Positions 1,018 to 58,893 of a stretch of 64,000 nucleotides of DNA are shown in pieces (the first letter of the stretch is position 1; each line of letters opens with the position of its first letter). The stretch lies in sequence record PZ445444.1; one strand, given 5' to 3'. Source of the stretch: a phage. A program made the translations under genes and the position numbers. The notes beneath the pieces are model-generated. The model was not told the DNA's origin. It did not search any database and saw only the letters and a list, made by a program, of their open reading frames with translations.

Positions 1018-1782
1018 TTGAAATTTATCTACAAAGAACACTACCACAAAGGTGTTGTGTGGAGTCTATTTGACGGGTCTGGTGGTGCAGTCATTGACTG
1101 GGCAAAAGCTGGGTACCTGTGCCTGTGCTTTAATGCAGAAGGCGCTGATCACGGCAGTTATGCAGAGGTGATCACCGATCATCCCAACATTCACTATGTG
1201 GACTATTGGATTGACCCGTGGTTCCCTCAGGAAACTTTTTGCATGTATCCGGCTCCAGATTTTATTCTTGCATTTCCTCCGTGCACGCATTTAGCGGTAT
1301 CAGGTGCTGCACATTTTAAGAAAAAGCTGGCTAAGGACCCCATGATCCAAATTAATGCTGTAAAGGATGCTCGGGTTGCGGAAGAGCTGGGAGAGATTTA
1401 CGATTGCCCGTGGCATGTAGAGAATCCTGTGGGTGTTATGTCCACACTGTGGCGCAAACCTGATTACCGTTTTCACCCTTCGGATTATGGCGGGTATTTA
1501 CCGGAAGATGATGTAAACCCATGGTTTCCTGAATTTATAGCTCCACGTGATGCCTATCCAAAAATAACTTGCGGCTGGATAGGTAATGGATTTATAATCC
1601 CAGCCACAAAACCTGTCCCGCAAATAGTTGACGCGGTTAGCGGGTATTCCATGCAACACGCCAAGCTGGGTGGAAAGAGTGCAAGAACGAAGATGATTCG
1701 AAGCCTCACACCACGTGGCTGGGCAAAAGCCGTATTCCTAGCAAACGAGCCTGTAGTAAGGAGCAGAATTAATGGGAAGTAA
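1018..1782 (+). CDS. putative DNA (cytosine-5)-methyltransferase
   Basis: Motif I-like FDGSGG, motif IV-like PPCTHLAVSG, motif VI-like ENPVGV. Probable TTG start at 1018 after GGAGA; the track ORF start at 988 lies inside the terminator stem. Confidence 0.5.
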   Translation: MKFIYKEHYHKGVVWSLFDGSGGAVIDWAKAGYLCLCFNAEGADHGSYAEVITDHPNIHYVDYWIDPWFPQETFCMYPAPDFILAFPPCTHLAVSGAAHFKKKLAKDPMIQINAVKDARVAEELGEIYDCPWHVENPVGVMSTLWRKPDYRFHPSDYGGYLPEDDVNPWFPEFIAPRDAYPKITCGWIGNGFIIPATKPVPQIVDAVSGYSMQHAKLGGKSARTKMIRSLTPRGWAKAVFLANEPVVRSRINGK

Positions 1783-3850
1783 ATTTATGGCATCTGCATA
1801 CAACCGTTTCGGTGAGCCAAACCCGAAAGCAACTAAGTATAAAAGTGGGGGAAGTGTGAAACGAGACTATCGTGATGAAAAAGAAGTTGAAACTGTAGAG
1901 ACTGTTTTAGAAAATACTAAAATTGTCCCTGTCCCACAACAAAATATCGGTCTGATGGCTGCACAATATTTTGGTGTGCGATCAGCATTGTCACAAGAAG
2001 ACGGTGTGACAGTCACTGCAACATATTTCCCATATTACGACCGCTACGGAAATCTGTCCGGTTTCAAAAAGCGTGACTGGACTATTCCTAAGGAACAAAG
2101 GGGTCACTTCTCCGTTGTTGGCATCGTAAAGGCCAACTCCCAGATGTTTGGTCAAAAGCTGTGTGCATCTTCCAACAACCGTAAGCAGATTAACGTTTGT
2201 GAGGGAGAAGGTGATGTTATTGCAGCATGGCAGGCTGCATATCAGATACAAGTAAAAGGGATTCTCACCAACGCTAAAGCCCCGGCAAAGGTGAAGCAGT
2301 GGGCTAAAGAGGTCCAGGACGGGATCGACGCAGTTATCAACGGTGGTGATCTGGCAGGAAAACCCTGCCTGCCTTTTGTTGGAATTAACTGTGGATGTGC
2401 AAACGCAGTAGATACTTTTGCAAACAATGAGAAGTTTATCCGTAGCTATGGAACAGTTGTGCTGGCAATGGATAACGATGCAGCTAACGAGGTAGAGAAG
2501 CAAAAACACGTCATTAAAGGTGTTGAGGCCACGCACAATATCGCAGCATTTTTGATGGCTGATAACGTTTACCACGTAGAATACCCTGGTGAAGTAAATG
2601 ACCCTGACGGGGTAAAAGATATCCGTGACATGCTGAAGGCTAAAAAGCTGGAAGATATTGTCAACATGTTCCGGCACCCTGTTAAATATGTGCCTGATGC
2701 TGTGTCGGATTTAGAAGACTTCTCTATCGAGTCTTTGCGGAAAAAGACTTCCAACGGGGTAGATATCAGCGCAGAGTTCCCAAAACTGCAAAAAATGCTA
2801 AAAGGCTTGCACAAAGGGACACTCGTAATGCTTACAGGGCCATCAGGGGGCGGTAAAACAACTGTAGCTAAAAAACTGGAACATTGTATTGCAAGATACC
2901 TAATGGACCCGACATGCCCGAAGGCTGATGACTATGAAGAGGATGATCGTCTATGTATGATCCATCTTGAGGAGGACCCAGAGGAAGCAATTAACTCCTT
3001 GTATGCAAACCAGTTAGGGTTTGATGTTAAAGAGTTTGTTGAAGATCCTAGCCAGTTTTTAACTGATCAAGAACACGCAGAGATTCACCAATCATGGGCA
3101 AAAGCTGGAAAAATCAAAGTGTTCAAACATTTCGGATCTATTCCGGTGGACGAGTTGATTACCAAGCTTAAGCAAATGGTTTGCCTGTACCATTGCCGTT
3201 ATATTGTGCTGGATCACCTGTCCATGGTAATTTCAGGGCTTAATGTTAAGGATGAGCGAAAAGAACTGGACATGGCTATGACTCAGCTGGCTGCGTTTTG
3301 TAAGCAGTTTAACGTGTTTATCTTGGTGATCGCTCACCTCAAACGTACAGAGATTGTGCCTCCTAAGGACAAGGATGGTAACCCGTTACCTTTCTGGTAT
3401 CCTGTGCGAAAAGAGAATTTGCGAGGATCGGCGGGGCTTGAACAGTTGAGTTGGGTAGTCATAGGTGTCGAGGCCGAAGAAATGGTGGATCGTTCTCGTG
3501 GACGTGTCCGTCTGGTAGGTCTTAAAAACCGTCCAGCAAAAACTCTAGGTATTGCTGACACTTTGGTTATGGACCCGCACACAGGTAAGTTCCATGATGC
3601 CAGTAATTGGTACTGGGACAAAGAAATGCAAATGTTTACAGACGGAGAAGGTGGGGAGGTTGTTTGGAGACCTCAGGCTATGTTTGAGGATCAGGAGCAT
3701 GCAGTTGTAGAAACACCTATGGGCAAGGTTGTGGCTGATAAGGTTGTAACTCCTACTGTTAAGCCTGTTGACACGCAGGAAGACCTCCAGTACGATGATC
3801 CATCCTCTGACCCGGTCCCCGGTTTTGAGGATGATGAAACACCTTTTTAA
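1772..3850 (+). CDS. bifunctional DNA primase-helicase (T7 gp4-like)
   Basis: 692 aa; TOPRIM-like CEGEGD segment in the N-terminal half; Walker A LTGPSGGGKTT and DnaB-family features in the C-terminal half. Confidence 0.85.
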   Translation: MGSKFMASAYNRFGEPNPKATKYKSGGSVKRDYRDEKEVETVETVLENTKIVPVPQQNIGLMAAQYFGVRSALSQEDGVTVTATYFPYYDRYGNLSGFKKRDWTIPKEQRGHFSVVGIVKANSQMFGQKLCASSNNRKQINVCEGEGDVIAAWQAAYQIQVKGILTNAKAPAKVKQWAKEVQDGIDAVINGGDLAGKPCLPFVGINCGCANAVDTFANNEKFIRSYGTVVLAMDNDAANEVEKQKHVIKGVEATHNIAAFLMADNVYHVEYPGEVNDPDGVKDIRDMLKAKKLEDIVNMFRHPVKYVPDAVSDLEDFSIESLRKKTSNGVDISAEFPKLQKMLKGLHKGTLVMLTGPSGGGKTTVAKKLEHCIARYLMDPTCPKADDYEEDDRLCMIHLEEDPEEAINSLYANQLGFDVKEFVEDPSQFLTDQEHAEIHQSWAKAGKIKVFKHFGSIPVDELITKLKQMVCLYHCRYIVLDHLSMVISGLNVKDERKELDMAMTQLAAFCKQFNVFILVIAHLKRTEIVPPKDKDGNPLPFWYPVRKENLRGSAGLEQLSWVVIGVEAEEMVDRSRGRVRLVGLKNRPAKTLGIADTLVMDPHTGKFHDASNWYWDKEMQMFTDGEGGEVVWRPQAMFEDQEHAVVETPMGKVVADKVVTPTVKPVDTQEDLQYDDPSSDPVPGFEDDETPF

Positions 3851-3865
3851 TGTTTAACAAAGAGT

Positions 3866-3894
3866 GGGAGGGGTAGTACAACCGCCTCCCCTTT
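3866..3894 (+). terminator. weak hairpin after primase-helicase
   Basis: gggagg ... cctccc stem followed by cttt; long loop, so a weak terminator at best. Confidence 0.3.
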
Positions 3895-3908
3895 AAGGAG
3901 AACACTTT

Positions 3909-4643
3909 ATGAACGAGTTCAGAGATCACTGTGTAGCTAATCACTTGTGGTCAGAAATATTGGAGTATGACGGTCAAAATCTTTTTTGGAAGATAGACAT
4001 TCTGGCAGGCAGCGGTGTAGGATATGTTAAAACTTCAGCAGGCTCCAGAGCTGACAAGGGGCAAGATGCTGATGGCAGGCCTGTGGTTAGTCTAGGAAAG
4101 CATTGCACTAAAGGTGCCCACGTTATAATCTGGGAAATGTTTAACGGTCCTGTACCGGAGGGGTATGAGGTTGACCACATCAAGGAGATAAGGGAAACAG
4201 GTGGTGTGGCTGACAACAGTATTCAAAATTTGCAACTACTCGAACCTACAGATAACAAAAAGAAAAGTTGCAAGATACCTCGTAGCAACAACAAATCTGG
4301 CAGGGTCGGGGTGCACTATTCTGAAGAAAGAGGGGCATGGGTAGCTCAAGGCACAGACTCTGTAGGTGAAAGGGTCTGGCTAGGCCAGTACAGAACTTTT
4401 GAAGAGGCAGAGTGGGCAAGAAAGTTCTTCGAAGATAATGGTTTTTCGCACAAGAGTGGAAGAGCCGTGCAGTATAATAACACCAGCGGTTGCTCAGGGG
4501 TGAATTGGGATAAAACCCATGAAAGATGGGTAGCCAGAATTTATGTAGATGGTAAAAGGAAATGCCTTGGGTATTTCAAGAACAGGGACGATGCAATAGC
4601 TGCAAGAAAGAATGCTGAGAAGACACAGGAGGAGACAGTATGA
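3909..4643 (+). CDS. free-standing HNH homing endonuclease with AP2-like repeats
   Basis: HNH core EVDHIKEIRETGGVADNSIQNLQLL; repeated RVGVHY...GAWVA and GVNWDK..RWVARI AP2-like segments; sits between primase-helicase and DNA polymerase. Confidence 0.7.
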   Translation: MNEFRDHCVANHLWSEILEYDGQNLFWKIDILAGSGVGYVKTSAGSRADKGQDADGRPVVSLGKHCTKGAHVIIWEMFNGPVPEGYEVDHIKEIRETGGVADNSIQNLQLLEPTDNKKKSCKIPRSNNKSGRVGVHYSEERGAWVAQGTDSVGERVWLGQYRTFEEAEWARKFFEDNGFSHKSGRAVQYNNTSGCSGVNWDKTHERWVARIYVDGKRKCLGYFKNRDDAIAARKNAEKTQEETV

Positions 4644-7069
4644 GTAATTGGTGCTTCGATCTGGAGGCCTCAGGGCTTTTGGAAGATCCAGATCTTTATT
4701 ATCACTGCGGTCTGTTTAAAGAGCTGAATAAGAACCGTTTTATGCTGTTCCTTCCTCTAAATGACCGCACACACTACTCCGAGGAGGATATAGAAAAGGC
4801 TAAGAACTTCATTCTGGCAAAGAAAACTCTTTATAAAGATTTTGAAGTTCGCATAGCAGATTTTTCGGAGTTGGAAGGTTGGCTTACAGGCAATTCTGAC
4901 TGGTCACCAACAGCTTTGAACTGCCATAACTGCTACAGTTATGACTTTATGCTAATGGAAAGATTATCCGGTATTCATTTTGATATGTTCCGTGATCCTA
5001 AATGCATGGGGACTATCAACGACCACCAGGTTAACCTGTTTGATACGTTGGCTATGAGCCGAATCTTGTGGCCTGATCGCCCTTTACCAAAAGGTTGTCC
5101 GGACGCTGTATTCAACCCGGTTACTAAGAAAATGCAACCTGTTGGTCCTCACGGCCTTATGGCATGGGGCTACGCCCTTGGTAACCAGAAAGTTCAAATT
5201 GATGACTGGCGCGATCTTCCGCTGTGGAAATATGTGGATCGTGTGTTCGAGGACGTTATCATCCAGGAGTTGCTCTGGAAAGAGTTGGTAGCGGAATCAA
5301 AAGGTGTATTCTACGGCAAATCTGACATGCAGAACTTTATGTATGACCCTGCCAAAGAGAAGCCTAAAGGATTCAAGAAGATTACCTGGAAGAATGCATT
5401 ACGCCGAGGCATGCTGCAGCATTTCCTGATGGAGCTGCAGGCTCGACAGGGTGTGTATTTCGACATAGATGGGGCTATTGCTTTACGTGACCGTTGCGAT
5501 GCGTGGATGAAAGAGATCGCTGATCGTGTTGAACCTCAACTTCCTTTAAAAGAGTTGTCAATGTCTCAGCGGCCCAAGTTCCCTGAAAAGCCGTTTAACC
5601 AAGACGGGACAATCTCCAATAATGGTTGGAAATGGTTAAAAGATAAGCTTGGCTATCCTGTAGACATGAGCGCTTTAGAATTCAAAGCCCCGCCTAAGCG
5701 AGCATTTACCTCCACAGGAGATGTCAGCAAGATGGGGATAAAATGGTGCGAAGAGATGGGCTGCAAAGACCCCGACAAGATGGCTGATTTCTTGAGAGGT
5801 TATATTAAGGGCACCTCCACACCACAACCTTTACCTAAAGAGCTGATGGATCAGGCAATAAGTGATCTGCAGCAGAAGCGAATGCCTGACTGCAAGATAC
5901 CTATGAAAATCAGCAATCAGGACGACATTAAGCGATACCTGATCAGTGCTGGTTGGCTTCCGACAATGTGGAGAACTAAGGATGTAACTAAGGACAGCAA
6001 GAAGAAAGCTCTACCTGATGCAGATGTTGATGCACGAGTATATGCATATATGGACGAGCTTTTAGAGTCAGAGTATTGTGACCTGATTATCAACTTCTGG
6101 AACAAAACTGATGCTAAGTTCCAGACAACCGTGCACAAGTTCCGAAGCTTTCCTAACTCCGAAAGGATTAAAAAGGAAGTATTCGGGAAAATACGTAGAA
6201 AAGCCAGGGCACTTATTACTTCTCCGCAACTGAAAGATACGTTTGGACACCTATGTCCGAATCTTGAAAAATTGAACGGAGAGATGGCTAAAGATATCGT
6301 CTTGTGGTTATCATTGCGAAACCGCAGATCGGTCCTTGATCCAATTAAGGAGGATAAGGTTGATACTGGTCTTCTTAATCACCCACGTTTGAAGATTGAC
6401 CATAAGCTTCCTGCTAAAAGCTCTGGATTAACAAACACTTCCAGACAGAAACACAGTATTTGTGCAAACATGCCTAAACCATCTCCTAAAGTGGTTATGG
6501 GTAAAGAGATGCGTAGCTTGTGGGGTGTTCCTCCTGGATACTTTGAGATCGGTATTGACGGGTCCAACTTAGAGCAGCTTATCGGGGCTTGGGGTGCCTT
6601 TGAGTTCGACAACGGCTTGTACTATGATGTTGTAAGTAACGGGGACGCACACCAAAACAATGCTGAGGCATATACAAAAGTAGCAGGCAGAGAGGTGTCT
6701 CGTAACGACGGTAAACCTATCACGTATGGGGTTATGTACGGGGCACAAAAAGATAAAGTTGCAGATATGCTGGATATCTCCCCAGAGTTGGGGCAAAGGG
6801 TGATCGATGCACTTTGGGATGCCAACCCCGGTCTTAAGGGGCGCAAAGAGGATCTGGAGAAATTCTGGGAAGCAACAGGTAAGAAGTTTATCTACTCTTT
6901 TGATGGTCATGCTATCTGGACCCGATCTAAACACTCTTTACTTAATGCATACCAACAAAATGGTGGTGCATCGCTGTGTGACTTAGTTGGGATACTCATG
7001 CACCACCAAATGGTGAAGCGTGGGTGGTACGATGAAGGTGTCCGTCGTATTATCTATTACCATAAATAA
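4640..7069 (+). CDS. DNA polymerase, family A, with 3'-5' exonuclease domain
   Basis: 809 aa; Exo I motif FDLEASG at the N-terminus; Pol A motif B-like RNDGKPITYGVMYG. Confidence 0.85.
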   Translation: MSNWCFDLEASGLLEDPDLYYHCGLFKELNKNRFMLFLPLNDRTHYSEEDIEKAKNFILAKKTLYKDFEVRIADFSELEGWLTGNSDWSPTALNCHNCYSYDFMLMERLSGIHFDMFRDPKCMGTINDHQVNLFDTLAMSRILWPDRPLPKGCPDAVFNPVTKKMQPVGPHGLMAWGYALGNQKVQIDDWRDLPLWKYVDRVFEDVIIQELLWKELVAESKGVFYGKSDMQNFMYDPAKEKPKGFKKITWKNALRRGMLQHFLMELQARQGVYFDIDGAIALRDRCDAWMKEIADRVEPQLPLKELSMSQRPKFPEKPFNQDGTISNNGWKWLKDKLGYPVDMSALEFKAPPKRAFTSTGDVSKMGIKWCEEMGCKDPDKMADFLRGYIKGTSTPQPLPKELMDQAISDLQQKRMPDCKIPMKISNQDDIKRYLISAGWLPTMWRTKDVTKDSKKKALPDADVDARVYAYMDELLESEYCDLIINFWNKTDAKFQTTVHKFRSFPNSERIKKEVFGKIRRKARALITSPQLKDTFGHLCPNLEKLNGEMAKDIVLWLSLRNRRSVLDPIKEDKVDTGLLNHPRLKIDHKLPAKSSGLTNTSRQKHSICANMPKPSPKVVMGKEMRSLWGVPPGYFEIGIDGSNLEQLIGAWGAFEFDNGLYYDVVSNGDAHQNNAEAYTKVAGREVSRNDGKPITYGVMYGAQKDKVADMLDISPELGQRVIDALWDANPGLKGRKEDLEKFWEATGKKFIYSFDGHAIWTRSKHSLLNAYQQNGGASLCDLVGILMHHQMVKRGWYDEGVRRIIYYHK

Positions 7070-7203
7070 CATTGTGGCTTCGTGCAGTGATGCACGTCGA
7101 AAACCTCTTTAATTGACGGGAAGGCTAAGTTGACTTTTACACCTAAACATGGTAAAAGCTCAATATGCTAATCCGCAGCGAAGACTAAAGGGGTGTAGTT
7201 AAA

Positions 7204-7710
7204 ATGGCTAGATCAGTTGATTATCACGGATATACCGTGTTTGATGATGGAACAATACCTTTATCGAAACGTGATCATACAACAATGTTTTGTTTTGATA
7301 ATGGTCGAGGTTACCTTTGCGTAACCATGTTCATCGAGGGGAAGCAGTGCACAAAAGGTGTCCACCACTTGGTTGCTGAATGCTTTGTATCAAACCCTGA
7401 TCCTGAAAGGCTCACATGGGTGAACCATAAGGACGGAAACAAATACAACAATGCATACTGGAACCTTGAATGGACCACCCCTGGTGGAAATATCAAACAC
7501 GCTTATGATAATGACCTCAGAGTAAGGCCAGTCGGTGAGTATAATGCCAACGCTGTACTGACCGAGGATGAGGTAACGGAGATTTGCGAACTGTTACAGA
7601 GTGGTCTACGACAATGCGAGATTAGGGATCTTGGGTATCCTTATGAGACGGTCAGAGCCATAAAGCAAAGAAGACAGTGGAAACATATCTCTAAAAACTA
7701 CACCTGGTAG
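7204..7710 (+). CDS. free-standing HNH homing endonuclease
   Basis: HNH core VNHKDGNKYNNAYWNLEWTT; located immediately after the DNA polymerase gene. Confidence 0.7.
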   Translation: MARSVDYHGYTVFDDGTIPLSKRDHTTMFCFDNGRGYLCVTMFIEGKQCTKGVHHLVAECFVSNPDPERLTWVNHKDGNKYNNAYWNLEWTTPGGNIKHAYDNDLRVRPVGEYNANAVLTEDEVTEICELLQSGLRQCEIRDLGYPYETVRAIKQRRQWKHISKNYTW

Positions 7711-7902
7711 TAACGTTCAGAGACTATCGAAAGCATAGCGCCAACATAAATTGGTGCGAAGAAGCGAGTAGAGTAGGCCAGCAAGTGCGGTCGAAATGGG
7801 AGGTGCCTTGGTAACAAGGTAGTGAGATAGTCCGATCCATACAGGAAACTGTATGGCTGTGCACGTAATGGTGCGGGGTAGCTTAACGACCTACCTGAAC
7901 TA

Positions 7903-8259
7903 TTGGATGAGTACCAACTTCAGGTCCCTGACACACCTAAGTATAAGACTGTGTACACCTTCGACACAATTGAAGAATTGGAAGCATTTAAGGCAGAGCA
8001 GGAGGCCAAACTTCATGTGTTCGACGGTCATAAGTACAAAAAGGCACGCAAGGATGAAAACGGAAACGAAGTGGTTGACAGAGACGGAAACACGGTGTAC
8101 GATCCTATCCTGAACGATGACGGAAAGCTTGAACTTATCTGGAGCCCTGTGGGTGAAATGGTGGTGCATTGCTTCTGGCAAGCTTCTAAAATGATGGGAG
8201 TCCCGTTCCAGATCACAGGTGAATACTTGTGTGGTCGTAACTGGGGTGATTGTCACTAA
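7903..8259 (+). CDS. hypothetical acidic protein (start uncertain)
   Basis: Protein-like D/E/K-rich frame; TTG start without clear RBS. The overlapping 7853 ATG frame has an RBS but a low-complexity product, so a frameshift or alternative start is possible. Confidence 0.45.
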   Translation: MDEYQLQVPDTPKYKTVYTFDTIEELEAFKAEQEAKLHVFDGHKYKKARKDENGNEVVDRDGNTVYDPILNDDGKLELIWSPVGEMVVHCFWQASKMMGVPFQITGEYLCGRNWGDCH

Positions 8260-8308
8260 TGTAAACTATCAGCACAGGGAGGTGCTGTTGAGCAAAGAGG
8301 AGACTTTT

Positions 8309-8593
8309 ATGGTAGTAGAGCCAACAAAAACATTTACATCCATGACCATTCCTGTTATTATGCAGGTGGAGTGTGTTCAGGTATCTCAAGTGTGGCCTGG
8401 CACCAAAATCCCAACAGGGCCTGATTTCTTTCAGGTTGGGAAAGTGTACAATGTCTGGAAGGCACCAGATTGTTACCCTTTCATTAAAGATGACCGTGGG
8501 ATGCTGTGGTATCTTGGAAATGACTTGACACTGCACCTTGGGAATGCTATTATTGCAGTATTCAGACTTAACAAGAAGGAGACCGATCAATGA
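8309..8593 (+). CDS. hypothetical protein (94 aa)
   Basis: ATG at 8309 preceded by AAAGAGGAGA; inside track ORF 8219..8593. Confidence 0.5.
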   Translation: MVVEPTKTFTSMTIPVIMQVECVQVSQVWPGTKIPTGPDFFQVGKVYNVWKAPDCYPFIKDDRGMLWYLGNDLTLHLGNAIIAVFRLNKKETDQ

Positions 8594-8814
8594 CGACTTT
8601 GGTTAAAGCTACCTTTGTAGAAGAAAAGATGACAGACCTGTCATTCTTTAAAGAAGGAAAGACCTACGAGGTTTATTACGATAAAGCTCGTGCAAACAAA
8701 ATGATTAAAGACGAGGAAGGGGGTTGCCTGGTATATCTCTCACCTGGCAAACGGTGAGTATCATATCTACGGAACCACTTTGCTTGCCAAGTTTGTAGTT
8801 GTTGAAGAGGACCT

Positions 8815-9009
8815 ATGAAAGTAAAGTATCTTGCTGAAGGTATGAATAGGTATTTTACCCTTGGGGAAGAATATTGGCCCTTTACAAACAACGGTGATGT
8901 CTACGTGAAAGATAATTTCGGCACGCCGTGGTTTCTGCACTCTAATGGGCTGGGATACTCCATTTACTGCGGTGCAGTGAACAACACAACTCTTGCAGAG
9001 TTCGTTTAG
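8815..9009 (+). CDS. hypothetical protein (64 aa)
   Basis: ATG start with GAAGAGGA upstream. Confidence 0.5.
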   Translation: MKVKYLAEGMNRYFTLGEEYWPFTNNGDVYVKDNFGTPWFLHSNGLGYSIYCGAVNNTTLAEFV

Positions 9010-9019
9010 AGGAGGTAGG

Positions 9020-9391
9020 ATGTTAGTAAAAGGTACCCGCACAGTCAAACAACGTATTGAAGTTGAGATTGATGATTGTGAGCTGAAGCATATTTTACGG
9101 TCATGCTCCAACGTTTTGCTCCTTAGTATTCTTCAGGAGCGAGCGGAGAACGAGTTCTTAAATGCATTGGCAGGCCGTCCCGGTGACTTCTGTGTGCGTA
9201 AGCGTGGTGACAACAAGTCATGGTTGTGGGAAATCGATGCCGACTGGGATTACCACAAAAATGAGGGTATAGATGAGCCTATTCGTGAACTGACTGACAA
9301 AGAGATTCAGATGTACAATGAAGTTTGTCATTGGGCAACACGCCAACAAATTTACCTAGACCCTGTGTGGCTGATTGAAAATAGCCATTGA
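9020..9391 (+). CDS. hypothetical protein (123 aa)
   Basis: ATG at 9020 preceded by AGGAGG; inside track ORF 8993..9391. Confidence 0.55.
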   Translation: MLVKGTRTVKQRIEVEIDDCELKHILRSCSNVLLLSILQERAENEFLNALAGRPGDFCVRKRGDNKSWLWEIDADWDYHKNEGIDEPIRELTDKEIQMYNEVCHWATRQQIYLDPVWLIENSH

Positions 9392-9416
9392 CAAGAAGTA
9401 AGATTAGATATAAGAT
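9388..9416 (+). promoter_or_regulatory. sigma70-like promoter
   Basis: TTGACA-N17-TAAGAT upstream of the gene at 9468. Confidence 0.5.
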
Positions 9417-9467
9417 GCTTCGCACAAACAGAGTGTTGATTTTTAAATAACTAAGGAGACTGCTAAG

Positions 9468-9722
9468 ATGAAAATTACTTTGAAGTCAGAATGCGTTGCA
9501 AATGACCGAGCTTTTAAAGATTGCACAGTCGGTGCAATTTATGAAGCAGAGTTTTGTGAGAACCCTCTGGTAAAAGCCCTCCTGGAAGAAGGGGCCCCTT
9601 TATCACAAGAAGAGATCGATGAGCTGGAAAACTCAGCACAGTGCCTTACCTTTAAAGATGATGAAGGAGACTCTGTCTGGTGCACTGTTAATGAAGTAGT
9701 TTTTGTAAAACCTGAACATTAA
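9468..9722 (+). CDS. hypothetical protein (84 aa), paralog of 9786..10046
   Basis: RBS AAGGAGA; shares DRAFKDCT...GD.V.CT pattern with the next gene. Confidence 0.6.
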   Translation: MKITLKSECVANDRAFKDCTVGAIYEAEFCENPLVKALLEEGAPLSQEEIDELENSAQCLTFKDDEGDSVWCTVNEVVFVKPEH

Positions 9723-9725
9723 TAC

Positions 9726-9754
9726 TTGACAACAGTGATGGAGCCTAATATAAT
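9726..9754 (+). promoter_or_regulatory. sigma70 consensus promoter
   Basis: TTGACA-N17-TATAAT exact consensus hexamers. Confidence 0.6.
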
Positions 9755-9785
9755 GGCCCTATCAAAACGAAAGGGGACCACAGCA

Positions 9786-10046
9786 ATGACCAAACAATAC
9801 CAACGAATTAAAGCCAAGGTTAAGCCAGACTATCTGGAGAAAGACTCTGCTTTTCGGGACTGCACAGCCGACAAAGTTTACACAGGGGCTGTCCTGTTGA
9901 ACGATAAACTTGAAGTAGATGTGCTGGGTAAAGAGGCCGTTATCGAGGATGACAACGGTGACTGTGTTTTCTGCACCACACGGGAGCTAGAAGTCTTAGA
10001 ATACTTCGGTGAAATCTTCAACTCTTTAGACGACGAGGAAGCGTGA
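9786..10046 (+). CDS. hypothetical protein (86 aa), paralog of 9468..9722
   Basis: ATG at 9786 after AAAGGGGA; the track start at 9726 is the promoter -35 TTG. Confidence 0.55.
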   Translation: MTKQYQRIKAKVKPDYLEKDSAFRDCTADKVYTGAVLLNDKLEVDVLGKEAVIEDDNGDCVFCTTRELEVLEYFGEIFNSLDDEEA

Positions 10047-10435
10047 TGAAAAATATTTGGGATATTGATATCTTTGAAGCCTCTAAGCTTGACGGTGCTG
10101 ATGGAGTTATTATGGTGTCTGATGGCAAGGCAACACTAACTTCCGGAGATATCATCTATGCCTTGGACGAGCTGGCGCTTCTGAAATCTACCGGTAACAC
10201 TTTAGAGGAGCGTCTTCAAGGCTTCGCCTTCAAAGAAGGCACAAATACCGCCATGATGTGCACCACACGGACAGTTCAGGTTGGTAACGGTATCTATATG
10301 ATCATTGCGGTGTGTCCTAAATTCAGCAACGTCAATAAAGATGATGCTGACGCTGTCAACGATGTGGTTGTTCTCTTCGTAGGTGACGCTATGGCAGACC
10401 TGATGAATGCAGGAGAAGCAGCAAATGAAGACTGA
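10043..10435 (+). CDS. hypothetical protein (130 aa)
   Basis: ATGA overlap with upstream stop; no recognisable motif. Confidence 0.55.
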   Translation: MMKNIWDIDIFEASKLDGADGVIMVSDGKATLTSGDIIYALDELALLKSTGNTLEERLQGFAFKEGTNTAMMCTTRTVQVGNGIYMIIAVCPKFSNVNKDDADAVNDVVVLFVGDAMADLMNAGEAANED

Positions 10436-10727
10436 AAACATTACCCCAGCAGGGTTCTTAAAAGTATACCGTGAACTGCTATATACTACAGAGGACAGTG
10501 TTCTAGAGTATCCAGAATATCTTTTGCTGTATAAGTATCTGCAGGAGGCTGGTGAAAATCTGCCAGTTAGTGCAGAAGGTGGTCCGAACTGGATATACAG
10601 CGCATGGAGAAAGGTTGACATTCTCCCAGATCCAGGTAAAGATATGGTAGTTTGGCAGCTTATCAACAACATTGGGATTCCAATCTTTGATGAAGCTGTT
10701 AAAATCTATTTTGAACTTGACGATTAA
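10425..10727 (+). CDS. hypothetical protein (100 aa)
   Basis: ATG at 10425 preceded by AGGAGA; alternative start at 10407. Confidence 0.5.
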   Translation: MKTENITPAGFLKVYRELLYTTEDSVLEYPEYLLLYKYLQEAGENLPVSAEGGPNWIYSAWRKVDILPDPGKDMVVWQLINNIGIPIFDEAVKIYFELDD

Positions 10728-10744
10728 TATCAGGAGACCTTAAG

Positions 10745-10990
10745 ATGACTGAAGTAGTTGCTCGCGCAGGACAGAAAGTACGTTGTGTTGAAGTAGGTTT
10801 TGGTGGCAAAGGGTGTCAAAACTTGACTCAAGGTAAGGAATACGCTGTTATTTCTGGTGGTGGCGACGAGAGTATTGTGTTCGAGGGCCACATCCTGGAT
10901 GCTGAAAACTTTGAAATCTTTGACGACGATGGAGATCCGATCACCTGCCTGCTGGACGGGAATTGGGGAACTTTCGAAGTGATTGGCTAA
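10745..10990 (+). CDS. hypothetical protein (81 aa)
   Basis: RBS GGAGA upstream of ATG. Confidence 0.55.
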   Translation: MTEVVARAGQKVRCVEVGFGGKGCQNLTQGKEYAVISGGGDESIVFEGHILDAENFEIFDDDGDPITCLLDGNWGTFEVIG

Positions 10991-11073
10991 CAAATACCTA
11001 TTGTAATTTACAGAAGGGGATGCTAAAATAGTGTCTCCTTCTATGTTGTTCAAATAAAATCGGAGATTCCATA

Positions 11074-11439
11074 ATGGAACAAATGAACGATCAAGCGTCG
11101 GTTGCGATGAACGAGCAAGAACAACCTCAAGAATTTTTCTTAGGGTTAAGTAAAGATCAAGTGTCTCTTCTGCTAGTGCTTTCTTCTTTCATGGGAAGAC
11201 TTCAGGAGCTCACACAACAGCCAGAGGCTGAACAATTATTCCAAGCTTTGCGTGAAGAAGAAAAATATCGTCGTTTGGACTATGCCTTAGGTTGGGTAGC
11301 TCAACAACGAGATATGCTGATGGCCCTCTCTGGGACCACAAGTTTTGCAATGGGCCTGCTGGCTCAAGTTCAGGACAAATTAATTCAAGCAGGGTTTGCA
11401 CACACGGCAAACACTAACGAAGAACAAGGAGACAAATAA
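11074..11439 (+). CDS. hypothetical protein (121 aa)
   Basis: RBS GGAGA; stop overlaps the SSB start. Confidence 0.55.
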   Translation: MEQMNDQASVAMNEQEQPQEFFLGLSKDQVSLLLVLSSFMGRLQELTQQPEAEQLFQALREEEKYRRLDYALGWVAQQRDMLMALSGTTSFAMGLLAQVQDKLIQAGFAHTANTNEEQGDK

Positions 11440-12665
11440 TGAGCGTTATTCAACAATTCGCTAACCCGATGAATCCGCGTGAAACTGTTTTACTGGCTCA
11501 CGGCATGATTAAACGTGTCAGCATCAAGCCTATCAAAGGTGCTGATCCTACAACAGGTATTAAAACCACTGTGTGGCAAGGTAAGAAAATTGAATCCAGC
11601 CACACCATCTCTTTACTGATTTCTGAACTGGATTCCTCTGATAACCTGCTTCAAGGTGGTGAAGAAGTTTGGATCAGCATGGGTGATAAGCTGCTTAAAC
11701 CTGGTCATCAAGACTCTGTCTCTGTTAAAATTGATGACAAGTGGGAAACCGTAACGCCGGGATGGATCGTAAATATCCCTTTGAAGGCAAACGAGCATAA
11801 CGGTAAGACCTATTACAAAGGCTCACTGGCTAAGATGGTCAAGCTGGGTGCAGGAGAGGCTCCAGCAGCGACTCAGCAGCAAAAACAGCAACAAGGTGCA
11901 CAATCACAAGGCCAGAAGCAGAAACCTCAGCAGAATGCCAATCAGGACGTTTTACGCATCTATGGTGATGTGACTCAGATTGTTGGCAACGTGGTTACTG
12001 TTAATGACCACAAGATTGGCGAAGGTGCTATGGTTGTAACTGATGAGCAGCTTAAAGACCTGGTGGTAGGTGGTCGTGTTGCAGCCATTGTTGACAAAGA
12101 CACCGGAAACATTATCAGTGGTTTCAAAGCCTATCCCCCTAAGGCAGAGAACGGCACTCAAGGCTCCGGTGGCAAGCGTAAATCCTCTTACGACCCTATC
12201 GGTGTGGAAACGGGGCATAGCATCAATGCGTTGCAGATCATCCTGGATCGCGGGTTTAAGGTAGACGACCCACTGGGCGTGGCTAAAACACTGCACGTAG
12301 TCACCATCGAGCTTAAGAAAGAGTATGCTCAAGCCACCAACCGAACTGAAGATGAAGTAGGTGCCAGTGTCGGTAATGCGGTGTTGAACGCTTGTCGCCG
12401 TATTGACAAGAAAACGAAAGTTGATGATTTTGCAGCGGCAATTACTGCAGAAGCAAAAGATGTCTTGACTAATCTGGCTGAGCCGTTGTACGATTGGATC
12501 AAGAACGGTGCTGGGTCAACTGACCATCAAGAACCTCAGGCTGCCAAACAGGAAGCAGCTCCACAGCAAAACACTGTAGACGCTCCTCCTGTAAATGACG
12601 AGGAAGATGACCCGATGGATCAGAATCCAGCACAGTATGAGTTCGATGACTCGATCCCTTTCTGA
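11439..12665 (+). CDS. single-stranded DNA-binding protein (candidate)
   Basis: 408 aa; Q/G-rich linker; acidic C-terminal tail ending DDSIPF, resembling the SSB C-terminal DDDIPF motif; sits in the replication module. Confidence 0.6.
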   Translation: MSVIQQFANPMNPRETVLLAHGMIKRVSIKPIKGADPTTGIKTTVWQGKKIESSHTISLLISELDSSDNLLQGGEEVWISMGDKLLKPGHQDSVSVKIDDKWETVTPGWIVNIPLKANEHNGKTYYKGSLAKMVKLGAGEAPAATQQQKQQQGAQSQGQKQKPQQNANQDVLRIYGDVTQIVGNVVTVNDHKIGEGAMVVTDEQLKDLVVGGRVAAIVDKDTGNIISGFKAYPPKAENGTQGSGGKRKSSYDPIGVETGHSINALQIILDRGFKVDDPLGVAKTLHVVTIELKKEYAQATNRTEDEVGASVGNAVLNACRRIDKKTKVDDFAAAITAEAKDVLTNLAEPLYDWIKNGAGSTDHQEPQAAKQEAAPQQNTVDAPPVNDEEDDPMDQNPAQYEFDDSIPF

Positions 12666-12673
12666 GGTCAGTT

Positions 12674-13252
12674 ATGAAATGCAAACGTTGTGGAGAGGAC
12701 AAGGAGGCCTCCGACTTCTACACCAGTAACAAATCAACGTGCAAAGAGTGTTGCAAGAAGGCCAGCAGGGAGGCTGACCAATTTGCTAGAGACTCTTCAG
12801 AAAAAGGTGTAATACGTGTGTTGTACAAGGCTCAAAAGTGCAACAGCAAGCAAAGAGGTCACCCTCCTCCGACTTACACCAAAAAAGAGTTTAAGGAGTG
12901 GCTATACCTTAACGGTTACAAAGAGTTGTATGATCAGTGGGTAGCCAGCGGATACGACAAAAGGAAAAAGCCTTCTTGTGACAGGATAGATGATTTCAAA
13001 GGGTACTCTTTTGATAATATCCGTTTAACGACTTGGGGAGAAAATAAAGACAAGCAGACAGAGGATATTCTGTTACATAGAAGCACCAGCGGTAGACGGT
13101 GCAAAAATGTAAGGAGGTTGGACATGAATGGTAACGTTCTTAAAGAATGGGTATCTCACAACTCTTGTAGCAGAGAAACCGGAATATATATTGGTTACTA
13201 CATTCATGAAAAAATTCCAGCTCCAGATGGATACTTATACGAATACTTTTAA
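12674..13252 (+). CDS. zinc-ribbon protein, possible degenerate HNH-type endonuclease
   Basis: N-terminal CxxC...CxxC; segment CDRIDDFKGYSFDNIRL resembles an HNH core with H replaced; followed by the repeated terminator. Confidence 0.4.
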   Translation: MKCKRCGEDKEASDFYTSNKSTCKECCKKASREADQFARDSSEKGVIRVLYKAQKCNSKQRGHPPPTYTKKEFKEWLYLNGYKELYDQWVASGYDKRKKPSCDRIDDFKGYSFDNIRLTTWGENKDKQTEDILLHRSTSGRRCKNVRRLDMNGNVLKEWVSHNSCSRETGIYIGYYIHEKIPAPDGYLYEYF

Positions 13253-13267
13253 CACATAACTAACATA

Positions 13268-13296
13268 GCCCTGCCCGAAAGGGTGGGGCATTTTTG
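13268..13296 (+). terminator. intrinsic terminator, second copy of the 973-1000 element
   Basis: gccctgccc-gaaa-gggtggggc followed by a ttttt run. Confidence 0.6.
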
Positions 13297-13314
13297 TATA
13301 AGGAGATCTGAAAA

Positions 13315-13731
13315 ATGACATTAGAAGATATCATTGTTAAACCTGAGAACTATGACCAATACAACCTGTCAACTCAATCTGTAGACCTTGGATGCGCCAC
13401 GGTCAGTGCGTGGCTGGTTAACGGAAAAGAGCTGGATAAATGCTTAGAAGCTCACATGTCTATTAACAAGTTTCTGGATGAAAATACTCACTGGCTTGAG
13501 GGTGCAGGCGTATATGCTTCATGGTTGGAGAGTATGGGATTCGACTACCAATCTGAAGAGGGGTGGTGGAGCTATTTAGCTATCTGTCCAGAGACGCTAC
13601 AATGCTTCATGAAATATTCTGAAGATTTGGAGTACCGGGCGGTGGTTGATAGTGCTATTGCCCGTTATAGCCGTAAACCTTTTTCCCACGACATTAAAAC
13701 TGTGGAAGAATTTGTTGAAGTTTTCTGTTGA
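13315..13731 (+). CDS. hypothetical protein (138 aa)
   Basis: RBS AAGGAGA upstream of ATG. Confidence 0.55.
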   Translation: MTLEDIIVKPENYDQYNLSTQSVDLGCATVSAWLVNGKELDKCLEAHMSINKFLDENTHWLEGAGVYASWLESMGFDYQSEEGWWSYLAICPETLQCFMKYSEDLEYRAVVDSAIARYSRKPFSHDIKTVEEFVEVFC

Positions 13732-13757
13732 CACAGATTGAAAGGTGTGCAATTATA
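13728..13757 (+). promoter_or_regulatory. sigma70-like promoter
   Basis: TTGACA followed 17-18 nt later by AATTAT/ATTATA; upstream of the three-gene unit ending with the macrodomain gene. Confidence 0.45.
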
Positions 13758-13827
13758 ACTTCATAGAACGGGAGGACGTGATGAACGAAGAAAACTGGGA
13801 TGTATAACTAACAGGAGGCCACTGCCC

Positions 13828-14025
13828 ATGATTTATCGAATCCGTGTAAGAGAAGATGCACCAGGCTGTTACTTTGACTGGCGTGGGTGGTGGTTTATCC
13901 ACCCAATGGATGGACTCACAGATAGAATGCTGGATGCTGCCCTTTATACAGATACCGACATAGAATATAATCTCTATCTGAAGGACGGTATAGATAACGG
14001 CCTGTTTGAAGCAATTCCTGTGTAA
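13828..14025 (+). CDS. hypothetical protein (65 aa)
   Basis: RBS AGGAGG; first gene of the putative operon. Confidence 0.5.
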   Translation: MIYRIRVREDAPGCYFDWRGWWFIHPMDGLTDRMLDAALYTDTDIEYNLYLKDGIDNGLFEAIPV

Positions 14026-14093
14026 GAGACTGTGATAGCTATGTTTTATGATCTTCCTGTAGCACCACCACCTGTTGAACCCGGAGAACTAAG

Positions 14094-14519
14094 ATGATCT
14101 ATGAAATGCCAAAACTGATTCGTGACGATGCCCAAAACGCCCACACCTTTATCATGGGCAAGCGCATGGATATTATTTGTCATAAAGATTTCTGGGAAGG
14201 TAGTTACTTCACAGAATATTTTGGTAAACTGGATAATGGTCTGCTGATCCAGTTCTACACCGATGCGGAAAACAATATCTGCTGGGAGTTCGAAACTGAA
14301 GATATCCATAAACTTTTCACCTTCCTAGGTATTAAGGTTGAGGCCAAGTTTGAAGAAGGCGAGTGCGACGATTGTGGATTCTACGAGGTAACAGATTTCT
14401 ATCTCCCAAGTGGTGAGAACCTTTACTATGAAAGCCACTTCGGCAACTCAAATATGCCACAAGGTTGGGATGAGTTTTTTGAAATTGCGGAAGAGGAGCT
14501 GACATACCGTGATTATTGA
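14094..14519 (+). CDS. hypothetical protein (141 aa), coupled to the macrodomain gene
   Basis: Overlaps the macrodomain start by 11 nt; no recognisable motif. Confidence 0.55.
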   Translation: MIYEMPKLIRDDAQNAHTFIMGKRMDIICHKDFWEGSYFTEYFGKLDNGLLIQFYTDAENNICWEFETEDIHKLFTFLGIKVEAKFEEGECDDCGFYEVTDFYLPSGENLYYESHFGNSNMPQGWDEFFEIAEEELTYRDY

Positions 14520-14967
14520 TACTGTAGCGGGAGATTTAATCTCCCTTTTTAAGAGCGGTGCTGGTCACCTGATCCACGGTTGTAACTGCTTTCATACAAT
14601 GGGTGCAGGCATAGCGAAAGATATTGCCCGTGAGTTCCCTCAAGCACTGGCAGCCGACAAAGAGACTGCCTATGGTAATCTGGACAAGCTGGGTATGTTT
14701 TCTTGTTGGGAGCATTTTGCCAAGAACAGGGTCGTATATGGAATCAACCTGTATACCCAGTTCTACCCAGGGCCCAATGCTGAATACTTCTCAATAATGA
14801 AAGGTTTTGAGCGAGTCAACGAGGTATTCAAAGGTGTGTCATTGCCGTTCTACATTCCTAAAATTGGATGCGGTATTGGCGGTCTAAAGTGGGAACATGT
14901 AGAAGATGTAATTAATCTTGCAACCACAGATATTGATGTGGTTGTAGTAGAGTACAAAAAGTGTTGA
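14509..14967 (+). CDS. macrodomain protein (TARG1/DarG-like ADP-ribose hydrolase, candidate)
   Basis: Segments HGCNCFHTMGAGIAKDIAREFP and FYIPKIGCGIGGLKWEHVEDVI match the two glycine-rich macrodomain motifs of the TARG1/OARD1 type. Confidence 0.7.
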   Translation: MIIDTVAGDLISLFKSGAGHLIHGCNCFHTMGAGIAKDIAREFPQALAADKETAYGNLDKLGMFSCWEHFAKNRVVYGINLYTQFYPGPNAEYFSIMKGFERVNEVFKGVSLPFYIPKIGCGIGGLKWEHVEDVINLATTDIDVVVVEYKKC

Positions 14968-40314: not shown

Positions 40315-40848
40315 CTACAAATGGTCGCTGAGGGTGTCAAGAAAATTATCCCGTTCTTTCTCAGAGTTTTCATGTGTGTAGCTGAAAAACATATCGAGAA
40401 TAACCTTATTGATATATTCCAGCTCCTCTGTGTTCAGATGCTTAGCAGGATCTACAATGACATCCCAAATATCATACAGACCACACTCATGATACCCATA
40501 ACGCCACTCAATTGTCAAGCTGAGCGGCAAATCTTTACCTTCACAAACAACCTTCCATCTACATATGTTGGTATCTGGTCGTACCTGTGCACGGTAAACC
40601 TGCACAAAATCCAATTTGAATTTGAGGTACTCGTCATACAATTTAAGCACAAAGCTCTCGATTTGTGGAGACACTTTTGCAGCAAACTGTGCGTATTTGT
40701 ACTTGCACTGGATGATCTTTCTACGTTTTGCAGTTAAATTTTTTGCCGCCAGTTGTTCTTCAGTGTATCTCCACCTACGATCAACAAACGCAACAGGGTC
40801 TTTGTCCCCATAGAGGTCTTCCCAGTTAATCAGAAGCATACCTGTCAC
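40315..40848 (-). CDS. hypothetical protein (177 aa)
   Basis: ORF in the co-directional array; no recognisable motif. Confidence 0.55.
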   Translation of the reverse strand: MTGMLLINWEDLYGDKDPVAFVDRRWRYTEEQLAAKNLTAKRRKIIQCKYKYAQFAAKVSPQIESFVLKLYDEYLKFKLDFVQVYRAQVRPDTNICRWKVVCEGKDLPLSLTIEWRYGYHECGLYDIWDVIVDPAKHLNTEELEYINKVILDMFFSYTHENSEKERDNFLDTLSDHL

Positions 40849-41785: not shown

Positions 41786-42070
41786 CTACCAGGTCACTGT
41801 CAAGTAGGCAACTGTGTTATTTTTCTCCGGAGAGATGCCAACAACATCCACCTGCAGACCTCCTGCCCTCAAATCCCCAACAATGTGTGGGAAGTAGTCT
41901 GAGAGGTGTGATGGGAGATTTATCGAAAATCCACATCCCAGAAAGCCTGCTAACGCTTTATTTTGTATCTCCCCAACAATCGCATCATAAATAGAGTTAA
42001 GCTCGTCAGGAAGCGTTACAGGACGTTTTAGCGCTAACTGGTGCAACTTGTCCTTAGCACTCATTTTCAT
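41786..42070 (-). CDS. hypothetical protein (94 aa)
   Basis: Probable start at internal ATG 42070, overlapping the methyltransferase stop as ATGA. Confidence 0.45.
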   Translation of the reverse strand: MKMSAKDKLHQLALKRPVTLPDELNSIYDAIVGEIQNKALAGFLGCGFSINLPSHLSDYFPHIVGDLRAGGLQVDVVGISPEKNNTVAYLTVTW

Positions 42071-42600
42071 TTCAAGTCTGCCTCTGGTGGTGCCAACCAC
42101 ATAAATGGCGGCAAGTCTAGACGGTTTTTCTTGTCCCATACAAAATATGCATATGCCTGCCCATCCGTTCTACCATTAGATTGGAATGACGGACGCTTAG
42201 ATATTGTGATCACAGTGGTAGGTGCATTATCAAGCCACCATTCAAATCTGGCCTTGCTTTCCAGAAAATTAAGACGCAAAAGCATAATAACTACGTCGGC
42301 ATCTTTCAACGCCTTGTCCACAAACTCACGAGCCAGGCTGTACGGCGGGTTGGTGATAATACAGTCAACATGGTTGTATTCTGTATTCAGATAGTCAACA
42401 CCTTCTTGGATTTCTCCCCATGCAGATCCTAACGGCATACGGGAGTAGAACACACCTGAGGCACTATTCCTGCAAGGCTCTAAGTAGGTCCAGTCTTCTG
42501 GGAACGGAATAAGGTCATACAGTCCTTCTGCACACCACTCCGGTGTCACATACTCATCGTAGGCGTTACGTTGTTCATCAGGTTTTCTAGCACAAGTCAT
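42067..42600 (-). CDS. DNA N6-adenine methyltransferase (NPPY motif)
   Basis: Catalytic motif DCIITNPPY. Confidence 0.65.
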   Translation of the reverse strand: MTCARKPDEQRNAYDEYVTPEWCAEGLYDLIPFPEDWTYLEPCRNSASGVFYSRMPLGSAWGEIQEGVDYLNTEYNHVDCIITNPPYSLAREFVDKALKDADVVIMLLRLNFLESKARFEWWLDNAPTTVITISKRPSFQSNGRTDGQAYAYFVWDKKNRLDLPPFMWLAPPEADLK

Positions 42601-54959: not shown

Positions 54960-55018
54960 TATTATAGATTATCTGATACTATTAGTCAACACAAAAGTTA
55001 CCTATCGCTGTGATAGGA

Positions 55019-56202: not shown

Positions 56203-56203
56203 T

Positions 56204-57608: not shown

Positions 57609-57623
57609 TCATACTATGCGTTA

Positions 57624-58082
57624 TTAGAAGTTTGTTTTTACACGTCCCTTCTCATCAACCTCGTTGTTAGCTAAAAGCGTTACAAAGTCTGTGAAACGAA
57701 CATGAAGAACCCTTTTCTTATCAAGGTATCCTAAAGCCACCCCTGAGAAATTTAGCATCAAAGGGGCTAAAGAAGCTCTGGCACTGAAATGCTGTTGTTC
57801 TACCCTTCCAACACCCTTAGTGTAGGATGGGTTAAGATTGTAAGTTCTGAATCCCAGTTTTGTTGGAGCTTTAGAATTAAAAACGACTTTATAGCGTTTC
57901 TTACTCAACTTATGCTCCAGGATAAGCATTCCCTTATCACCTTTGATAAGTTGAAAATCTGTAAAGTGCTCTTTTAAGACGAAAGGTAGTGCCAGTCCCA
58001 TCGCCTGTCCTCTTTGTACCGCTGTCTCACCAAAAGCTTTTGCATCAGTAAGTTCTTTGGTCAAGTCTATGCTTTTGATCAT
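57624..58082 (-). CDS. hypothetical protein (152 aa)
   Basis: ORF in the co-directional array. Confidence 0.5.
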   Translation of the reverse strand: MIKSIDLTKELTDAKAFGETAVQRGQAMGLALPFVLKEHFTDFQLIKGDKGMLILEHKLSKKRYKVVFNSKAPTKLGFRTYNLNPSYTKGVGRVEQQHFSARASLAPLMLNFSGVALGYLDKKRVLHVRFTDFVTLLANNEVDEKGRVKTNF

Positions 58083-58893
58083 ACCTGGTCTCCAAAATGT
58101 ATTGTAGTTCTTTCTTACCTATACTCTTCATTCCAGCAGTCTTACCTGCTTCTTCTTGAAAAGAAGAATAGCATTCAGCAAACACTCTGTCAACACCGTC
58201 AACTAAAGATTTTATGAAATATGTTGATTCTTCAGATTTTGGGTCATCATCCCCCAATACTTTTCCAGCATTATACCCAACACGTCTTACACAGAAGTCG
58301 TAGTCATCTGGTGTGCTAAAAGAAAATAACTTATTCTCTCCAATCTCTACAGGATCCCTATTGCACACCTTTTTCTCCCAAATTTGGAAAACACATGGCA
58401 CGTCATAAGGTTTGCCATTAAGTAAAAACGAATTCTTAGGGCACCTTTCGCTGTAGACAAGGTGCATCGACATGTCCAGTTTGTTTGCAAAAAATATTTT
58501 TTCAAATGTCCGTGGCAAGATGAAGGCTATAGCCCCTCCAAGCTCTAGCAATGATGCACAATGGTTAAAGAATTTGCAAGCTAAGGATGAATTCTTGCCA
58601 AATGGTGGGTTACCTATGAAGACATCTGCCTTGGGATGCACCTCCAAGAAGTTTGCCTGAATGCACGGTGTTGGTCCTTCAAATTCAGGATCTGGTACTA
58701 AATCGTACGACAGTATCTCTGAAAATAGTTTTGAAAAAGAACCCCTTCCAGCAGAAGGCTCAACGTATGCACAATTCCCATACTTATCTTTTACTTTACC
58801 AACAAGATATTCTGCATACTCAGGGTTTGTGTAGTATTTGTCGTTGGACTCTTTCTTGCTCAAAGTGCCTCCAAAAGGAAAAGGGAGGCGCAA
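58045..58893 (-). CDS. DNA N6-adenine methyltransferase (NPPF motif)
   Basis: Catalytic motif DVFIGNPPFG; start uncertain because the track TTG start lies inside a hairpin at 58883-58900. Confidence 0.6.
   Translation of the reverse strand: MRLPFPFGGTLSKKESNDKYYTNPEYAEYLVGKVKDKYGNCAYVEPSAGRGSFSKLFSEILSYDLVPDPEFEGPTPCIQANFLEVHPKADVFIGNPPFGKNSSLACKFFNHCASLLELGGAIAFILPRTFEKIFFANKLDMSMHLVYSERCPKNSFLLNGKPYDVPCVFQIWEKKVCNRDPVEIGENKLFSFSTPDDYDFCVRRVGYNAGKVLGDDDPKSEESTYFIKSLVDGVDRVFAECYSSFQEEAGKTAGMKSIGKKELQYILETRYDQKHRLDQRTY

Follow-up and report, generated by a model that had tools for sequence, protein, structure and literature searches.

DNA methyltransferases of Escherichia phage WalterGehring (Bas51): solitary enzymes that probably mark GATC, GTAC and a cytosine motif

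Why does a phage carry several DNA methyltransferase genes with no cognate restriction endonuclease beside them? The question is raised by a 64,000-nt stretch of phage DNA (record PZ445444.1, positions 1–64000; this whole stretch is hereafter the window) in which three open reading frames (ORFs) are concerned: ORF A, a predicted C5-cytosine methyltransferase, and ORFs B and C, of the N6-adenine type. A preliminary description, made from the letters of the window, had placed three methyltransferase ORFs there and taken them for orphan enzymes that protect phage DNA from host restriction, and it had expected a heavily methylated genome. All three ORFs were confirmed, each by several independent lines of evidence, and three is the correct count for the window; the genome holds a fourth, intact methylase gene outside its left edge. 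The interpretation, a sensible textbook conjecture, was borne out in part. The catalytic motifs, whose inactivity on closer alignment had been named as a ground for giving up the idea, are intact in ORFs A, B and C. The explanation that best accounts for these genes, and that we consider probable, is that they encode solitary methylases marking GATC, GTAC and a cytosine motif, with a benefit limited to those motifs and a cost imposed by retron defence.

The whole window is DNA of Escherichia phage WalterGehring (BASEL phage Bas51; Vequintavirus; taxid 2852023; 140,659-bp genome). The ClpP-like protease, the P-loop NTPase and the bas51_0173 protein encoded in the window were exact matches to proteins named only from Escherichia phage WalterGehring, and ORF C and the HNH endonuclease of the window were likewise exact WalterGehring proteins. 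Megablast of the window returned the rV5-like genus Vequintavirus, with many genomes at 96–98% identity, and a 90-kb metagenomic/SRA contig (L026) showed 100.000% identity with window positions 1–14643. Results published for Bas51 can therefore be carried over directly to the DNA of the window. The genes themselves were already known: over 100 Vequintavirus genome records have all three with a methyltransferase annotation.

Which enzyme marks which motif can be said most firmly for ORF B (bas51_0176; 42067–42600, − strand), a minimal gamma-class N6-adenine methyltransferase of 177 amino acids. Bas51 mutants that escaped the retrons Asa1 and Squ1 were all mutated in ‘an N6 adenine methyltransferase’, and the substitutions D69G, D79G and T83P were each rebuilt singly in a wild-type background (PMC12548924). 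Among the four methylases of this genome, D69, D79 and T83 are jointly present only in ORF B. ORF C and the fourth methylase were considered as the enzyme altered in the T83P mutant and were rejected, the residues at positions 69/79/83 being Q/A/I and C/G/E, respectively. The escape mutations fit only ORF B, which is therefore the phage Dam. When N6-methyladenine (6mA) was called by nanopore sequencing of virion DNA, the wild type gave 1405 calls at GATC, 509 at GTAC and 576 at other positions, and the T83P mutant gave 35, 511 and 349 calls, respectively (PMC12548924). It has thus been shown experimentally for Bas51 that ORF B methylates the adenine of GATC, and that it does so at nearly every site (PMC12548924). 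The host was dam+, and yet only 35 GATC calls were left in the T83P mutant, compared with 1405 in the wild type; host Dam therefore contributes little to the GATC methylation of Bas51. The phage Dam was toxic when expressed alone, and it triggered the retrons Asa1 and Squ1, the latter in its native host (PMC12548924).

ORF B acts as a Dam but falls outside the curated families PF05869 and TIGR01712. It scored 19.2 bits with PF05869 (cutoff 28.1) and 16.1 with TIGR01712 (against 97), and its Pfam matches (EcoRI_methylase and Dam) were all sub-threshold; PF05869 was matched by 6 of 25 members of the ORF B family. The protein matched phrog_799 (E = 5e-67), and its family profile matched M.TaqI (E = 1.6e-5), the closest solved relative by profile. 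The NPPY motif occupies residues 84–87 (TNPPY, 83–87), with T83, N84, P85 and P86 invariant in 25 homologs. Like the phage Dams of T1, T2/T4 and P1 (small N6-adenine methylases of phages, Pfam family PF05869), ORF B is a short enzyme with NPPY that stands alone, and in Bas51 it methylates virion GATC; unlike them, it has a degenerate motif I (EPCRNSASG). Homology to the T1-type Dam of phage KarlJaspers was considered, but the match was only local and marginal (E = 0.006), in the NPPY region. Five genes downstream of ORF B lies a gene for a ‘putative glycosidase’ (40315–40839, − strand; 174 amino acids from the annotated ATG; phrog_13467, no Pfam match) with R at position 87. This is evidently the gene of the R87* mutation of Bas51 escape from Retron-Asa1 (PMC12548924).

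How far does methylation of the virion DNA extend? The window contains 342 GATC and 132 GTAC sites. Scaling of this site density to 140,659 bp gave ~1503 target adenines in GATC and ~580 in GTAC, compared with the 1405 and 509 that were called in the wild type; both motifs are therefore close to saturated. The expectation of a heavily methylated genome stands insofar as nearly all GATC and GTAC sites are methylated, but it is overstated, because the 2490 6mA calls amount by calculation to ~3% of the adenines, confined to short, defined motifs, and the DNA is not hypermodified. Long-read sequencing of virion DNA, which the preliminary description had proposed, is available as published nanopore data of Bas51, and these show methylated GATC and GTAC. 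Beyond the retron paper (PMC12548924), our literature search on the Vequintavirus methylome yielded nothing, and neither the rV5 genome paper nor Korf et al. (2019) has methylation or restriction-digest data on these genes. Within the window GTAC is under-represented (observed/expected 0.68) and GATC is not (1.05); the most depleted palindrome is CTAG (0.57).

The second 6mA motif, GTAC, has ORF C (bas51_0200, QXV85710.1; 58045–58863, − strand) as its favoured candidate enzyme. The preliminary description had this ORF present at 58045–58893; the gene was indeed there, but position 58893 marks the start of the maximal ORF only, a TTG in the loop of a terminator-like hairpin (58879–58900, − strand; GGGAGGC-TTGC-GCCTCCC followed by a T-run) that lies after the gene of a DnaQ-like exonuclease. 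The true start is TTG 58863, preceded by GGAGG at 58872–58868, and gives a product of 272 amino acids identical to GenBank QXV85710.1. In a model of the 282-residue version, residues 1–12 had a predicted local distance difference test (pLDDT) score below 50.

Judged from its sequence, ORF C appears to be a gamma-class, Type II-like N6-adenine DNA methyltransferase. It matched the PADLOC model MTase_II PDLC03255, a REBASE-derived Type II model, with E = 5.8e-34 (residues 8–253 aligned to positions 2–249 of 269). Its PHROGs match, phrog_5172, is labelled ‘unknown function’, and its Pfam matches (Eco57I and MTS) were both sub-threshold; many of its homologs carry PF26055 (Mtase_EDM2). EPSAGRG is found at residues 35–41 and NPPF at residues 85–88 (272-residue numbering), and EPSAG.G and GNPPFG were invariant in 24 homologs. 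The predicted structure (pLDDT 90) matched, in its catalytic domain, M.TaqI, CamA, M.BseCI, type I M subunits and some RNA methylases. As in the gamma-class Type II enzymes related to M.TaqI, motif X is followed by EPSAGxG and then by NPPF, and the catalytic fold is of the Rossmann type. In contrast to those enzymes, ORF C has a C-terminal domain unmatched by solved structures (template modelling (TM) score ~0.4), no adjacent restriction enzyme and a conserved small partner gene. GTAC methylation was unaffected by T83P (509 vs. 511 calls) and is thus independent of ORF B, and marking of both strands of a 4-bp palindrome is what would be expected of an enzyme of the Type II kind, such as ORF C.

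The fourth methylase lies just outside the window. It has 441 amino acids, would be bas51_0070 by numbering, matches PF01555 and is encoded at 4524–5849 of contig L026, ending 244 nt to the left of window position 1. DPPF at residue 73 and FGGSG at residue 366 stand in the beta-class order, and the protein is Type III Mod-like (N6/N4). It shares with the Type III Mod orphans (PF01555; EcoP1I Mod) matches to P1 Mod and to ‘type III methylation subunits’ of Campylobacter phages and, as distinct from Type III systems, it has no Res subunit. The gene is accessory within Vequintavirus. It was found in ~87 records vs. about 116–120 for ORFs A to C (ORF C in about 120 Vequintavirus records), and it is absent from L019, L021, L022 and L028, genomes that have the identical ORF A protein. 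In phage EmilHeitz it is seemingly split into two frames (L009, 1975–2106 and 2141–3301).

Are the enzymes of the window truly solitary? No restriction endonuclease signature was found by Pfam, PHROGs or PADLOC in the neighbours of ORFs A, B and C, and the curated annotation of the collinear EmilHeitz shows neither a restriction enzyme nor a further methylase in the region. Nuclease genes in the window encode an HNH-AP2 homing endonuclease, EndoVII and exonucleases. The view that these are solitary genes with no cognate restriction endonuclease nearby was thus borne out, with one caveat, the partner of ORF C. This gene (bas51_0199, phrog_9938; 57624–58082, − strand) encodes 152 amino acids and overlaps the 3′ end of ORF C by 38 nt. 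Its product gave no Pfam, PADLOC or credible PDB match, the sole PDB hit being a spurious TPR, and an exhaustive search among 1.8 billion representatives returned only 5 relatives. The family has the common motif (S/A)(F/Y/W)(T/Q)KG(Y/V/F)(G/A/S)R; its members abut ORF C-type methylases in L011 and L012, and in P0140 one member forms a single fused protein with the methylase.

ORF A (bas51_0074, by accession arithmetic; 1018–1782, + strand; 254 amino acids) is predicted from its structural model to be a compact C5-cytosine DNA methyltransferase with a DNMT3-like fold, belonging to a phage ‘Dcm-like’ family. The start at TTG 1018 given earlier is correct, with AGGAG at 1005–1009, 8 nt upstream. 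A longer version starting at GTG 988 was rejected, this spurious start being contained in a terminator-like hairpin 5′ of the gene (972–999, + strand; read from the sequence as GGCCCTGCCC-GAAA-GGGTGGGGC followed by TTTTT). ORF A matched phrog_757, ‘DNA methyltransferase’ (E = 3e-87), and gave no match to Pfam PF00145 or to NCBIfam, while PF00145 was matched by 12 of 24 close homologs (E ≤ 0.1; best 1.3e-6). It belongs to a divergent subfamily, whose membership rests on fold and on transitive homology. The family is large, with 3549 homologs detected and 1505 phage records. Motif I (FDGSG, residues 18–22) has as its aligned counterparts LFDG in DNMT3B and LFSGAGG in M.HaeIII. Motif IV (PPC, 87–89) was invariant in 24 of 24 homologs and aligns with SPC of DNMT3B, and motif VI (ENP, 135–137), in which Pro replaces the usual Val, was invariant in the same 24-homolog alignment. 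Toward the C-terminus a motif IX-like segment (IRSLTPRG) is invariant, and the chain ends ~20 residues later in a long helix.

The AlphaFold model of ORF A is confident (pLDDT 87, predicted TM score (pTM) 0.87). When it was searched against the PDB, ~45 of the top 50 matches were catalytic domains of DNMT3A, DNMT3B or DNMT3C (E down to 1.2e-6, TM ~0.5), and the prophage CP-933R methylase 3g7u was matched as well. The family profile matched solely C5 DNA methylases in the PDB, weakly. Searching PDB sequences with ORFs A, B and C as single sequences produced no significant match, and Pfam and NCBIfam returned sub-threshold matches only, so that profiles, PADLOC and structure prediction had to be used.

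Over its full length ORF A is 54% identical (E = 2e-86) to bas06_0055 of KarlJaspers (Bas06), which corresponds to the characterised Dcm of phage K42. Phage K42, which is 95% identical to KarlJaspers/Bas06, has a 711-bp ‘Dcm-like’ gene that makes 5-methylcytosine (5mC), as detected by liquid chromatography–mass spectrometry, and triggers retron Ec86; the residues C82, E128, K175 and K176 of K42 Dcm were mutated jointly, and the site discussed is CCWGG (bioRxiv 10.1101/2023.08.16.553469). C89, E135 and K182 of ORF A are conserved with the K42/KarlJaspers Dcm (C82 and E128 being the K42 counterparts of C89 and E135), the spacing of the catalytic Cys, Glu and first Lys is identical, and a compact DNMT3A-like fold is common to both. 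ORF A is therefore likely to be catalytically active. The variable segment between GNGF and GGKS belongs to another subtype in ORF A (GYSMQH, not DNPGW), and the CCWGG specificity is therefore not simply transferable from K42 Dcm.

What would the phage gain from these enzymes? We propose that the phage-encoded methylases, three in the window and the fourth outside, would mark the replicating genome at short, specific motifs during infection: (i) ORF B, as shown for Bas51, places an N6-methyl group on the adenine of GATC; (ii) ORF C would produce GTm6AC on both strands; and (iii) ORF A would form 5mC at a short motif, perhaps CCWGG as reported for its Drexlerviridae homolog, though its recognition segment differs. 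The most likely benefit would be motif-specific immunity to restriction enzymes whose cleavage at GATC, GTAC or the cytosine motif requires the site to be unmethylated, with no general shield, and the price is detection of the methylases by retron defence.

Broad shielding from host restriction, as the preliminary description had it, is contradicted by published infection data. The Vequintavirinae were ‘exceptionally susceptible’ to restriction-modification (RM), without ‘any effective protection’, under laboratory conditions in which six RM systems were tested, namely EcoKI, EcoCFT_I, EcoRI, EcoRV, EcoCFT_II and EcoP1_I (Maffei et al., 2021). The window itself carries 11 EcoRI, 28 EcoRV and 81 AGACC/GGTCT sites. 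By their established sites, none of the six systems would be masked by methylation of GATC, GTAC or CCWGG. Susceptibility to these six systems therefore excludes broad protection and not motif-specific protection, which is the most economical reading.

Several observations weigh against this reading, the RM susceptibility among them. Protection from restriction by any of these enzymes is something that we infer, and the depletion of GTAC is unexpected if methylation fully removed the selection against that motif. The fourth methylase, intact and Type III Mod-like, is an equally available candidate for the GTAC enzyme. As for ORF A, it fails PF00145, has I183 in place of K176 of K42 Dcm and shows no recognisable GNxV-type motif X in the alignment of 24 homologs, and the searchable literature held no 5mC data for Vequintavirus. 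In a rival reading, which we regard as somewhat unlikely, the fourth methylase would make GTm6AC, and ORF C would act on a rarer motif among the ‘other’ calls or on a substrate other than DNA, e.g., RNA. Such an exchange of roles would draw on the intact DPPF and FGGSG motifs of the fourth enzyme, on the 349 ‘other’ 6mA calls that persist in the T83P mutant, on the RNA methylases among the structural neighbours of ORF C (TrmN, PH1948 and the METTL5-like Ta1320) and on the name ‘predicted RNA methylase’ that JGI gives to some of its homologs. However, the alignment of ORF C with a Type II DNA methylase model spans the full protein, its homolog in Poseidonibacter belongs to a defence island and neighbours a type I RM system, and GTAC, a 4-bp palindrome, is apparently methylated on both strands, the number of calls being ~2 times the number of sites. 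Type II enzymes typically behave in this way, whereas the sites of Type III Mod proteins are usually asymmetric and marked on a single strand. Very unlikely, in our view, is that ORF C is no orphan at all and forms a two-component unit with its 152-residue partner, e.g., a methylase with a small nuclease, specificity factor or regulator. Three phage lineages do have the partner next to a methylase of the ORF C family, with a gene order that varies and a fusion in P0140 (BLASTP E 6e-10 to 6e-54), and the two genes overlap in the window, but it carries no nuclease, helix-turn-helix or defence-system signature, ORF C already has a C-terminal domain of its own that is common to single-chain Type II methylases, and the gene downstream of a bacterial ORF C homolog is unrelated to the partner. 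Less probable still is that the pair is an undescribed module of, e.g., a GTAC methylase and a very small nuclease or DNA-binding factor; if it were, the phage could tell its methylated genome apart from host DNA that lacks the mark, and we would be dealing with a restriction-like system rather than an orphan methylase.

The same weighing applies to ORF A and to the purpose of GATC methylation. The missing PF00145 and NCBIfam matches, the Ile at the position of K176 and a chain that stops shortly after the motif IX-like segment and lacks a clear motif X would all fit a catalytically weak or inactive relic, or a protein recruited away from 5mC formation in DNA. Set against this, PPC and ENP, along with many further positions, do not vary within the family, which speaks for strong purifying selection, the DNMT3-like fold is predicted with confidence, and a 54%-identical homolog of the same architecture is active; decay or recruitment of ORF A is thus distinctly unlikely. 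A somewhat better case, although still a rather unlikely one, can be made for a role of methylation in the DNA metabolism of the phage, whose replication would outrun host Dam; the phage Dam would keep GATC methylated and so spare the phage DNA from nicking in MutH-directed mismatch repair, or it would time replication or packaging. Dam methylation acts at the pac site of phage P1, in packaging. Host Dam leaves the DNA of Bas51 unmethylated, as the loss of GATC calls in the T83P mutant indicates, GATC is not avoided in the window, and E. coli itself is not known to possess a restriction enzyme for GATC that the phage would have to escape. Titres of the methylase point mutants on a retron-free host were ~2–3 fold below that of the wild type (raw data of PMC12548924), but this difference may merely reflect different lysates. 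The mutants are viable and plaque well, so that no essential role in replication or packaging is evident, and the presence of three more methylases with different specificities would be left unexplained.

The methylation marks are also signals detected by retron defence, and they argue against regarding every phage methylase as a general anti-restriction shield. As a discovery this carries little weight; what it provides is a sharper picture of Bas51, with four methylases, two near-saturated 6mA motifs and one firm assignment of a methylase to its motif.

Two further features of the window were recorded. The HNH-AP2 homing endonuclease gene (3909–4643, + strand) lies between the primase/helicase and DNA polymerase genes and is present only in some relatives. 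The polymerase call in L026 is an 809-residue product with small ORFs after it; in the EmilHeitz annotation the polymerase is in two pieces, with a homing endonuclease inside, and the anaerobic ribonucleotide reductase of that phage is interrupted as well. The other feature is a region of ~2.2 kb (~28100–30270) where gene blocks of the + and − strands converge and no ORF of at least 70 amino acids is found. Its GC content is 0.34–0.38, compared with about 0.44, and it gave neither Rfam matches nor tRNAs. Short direct and inverted repeats are present, among them ATAGTTGCC(T/C)TG in both orientations around 28534–28725 and an exact 20-mer at 28550 and 28781. This region could be an origin or a regulatory region, or could contain very small genes.

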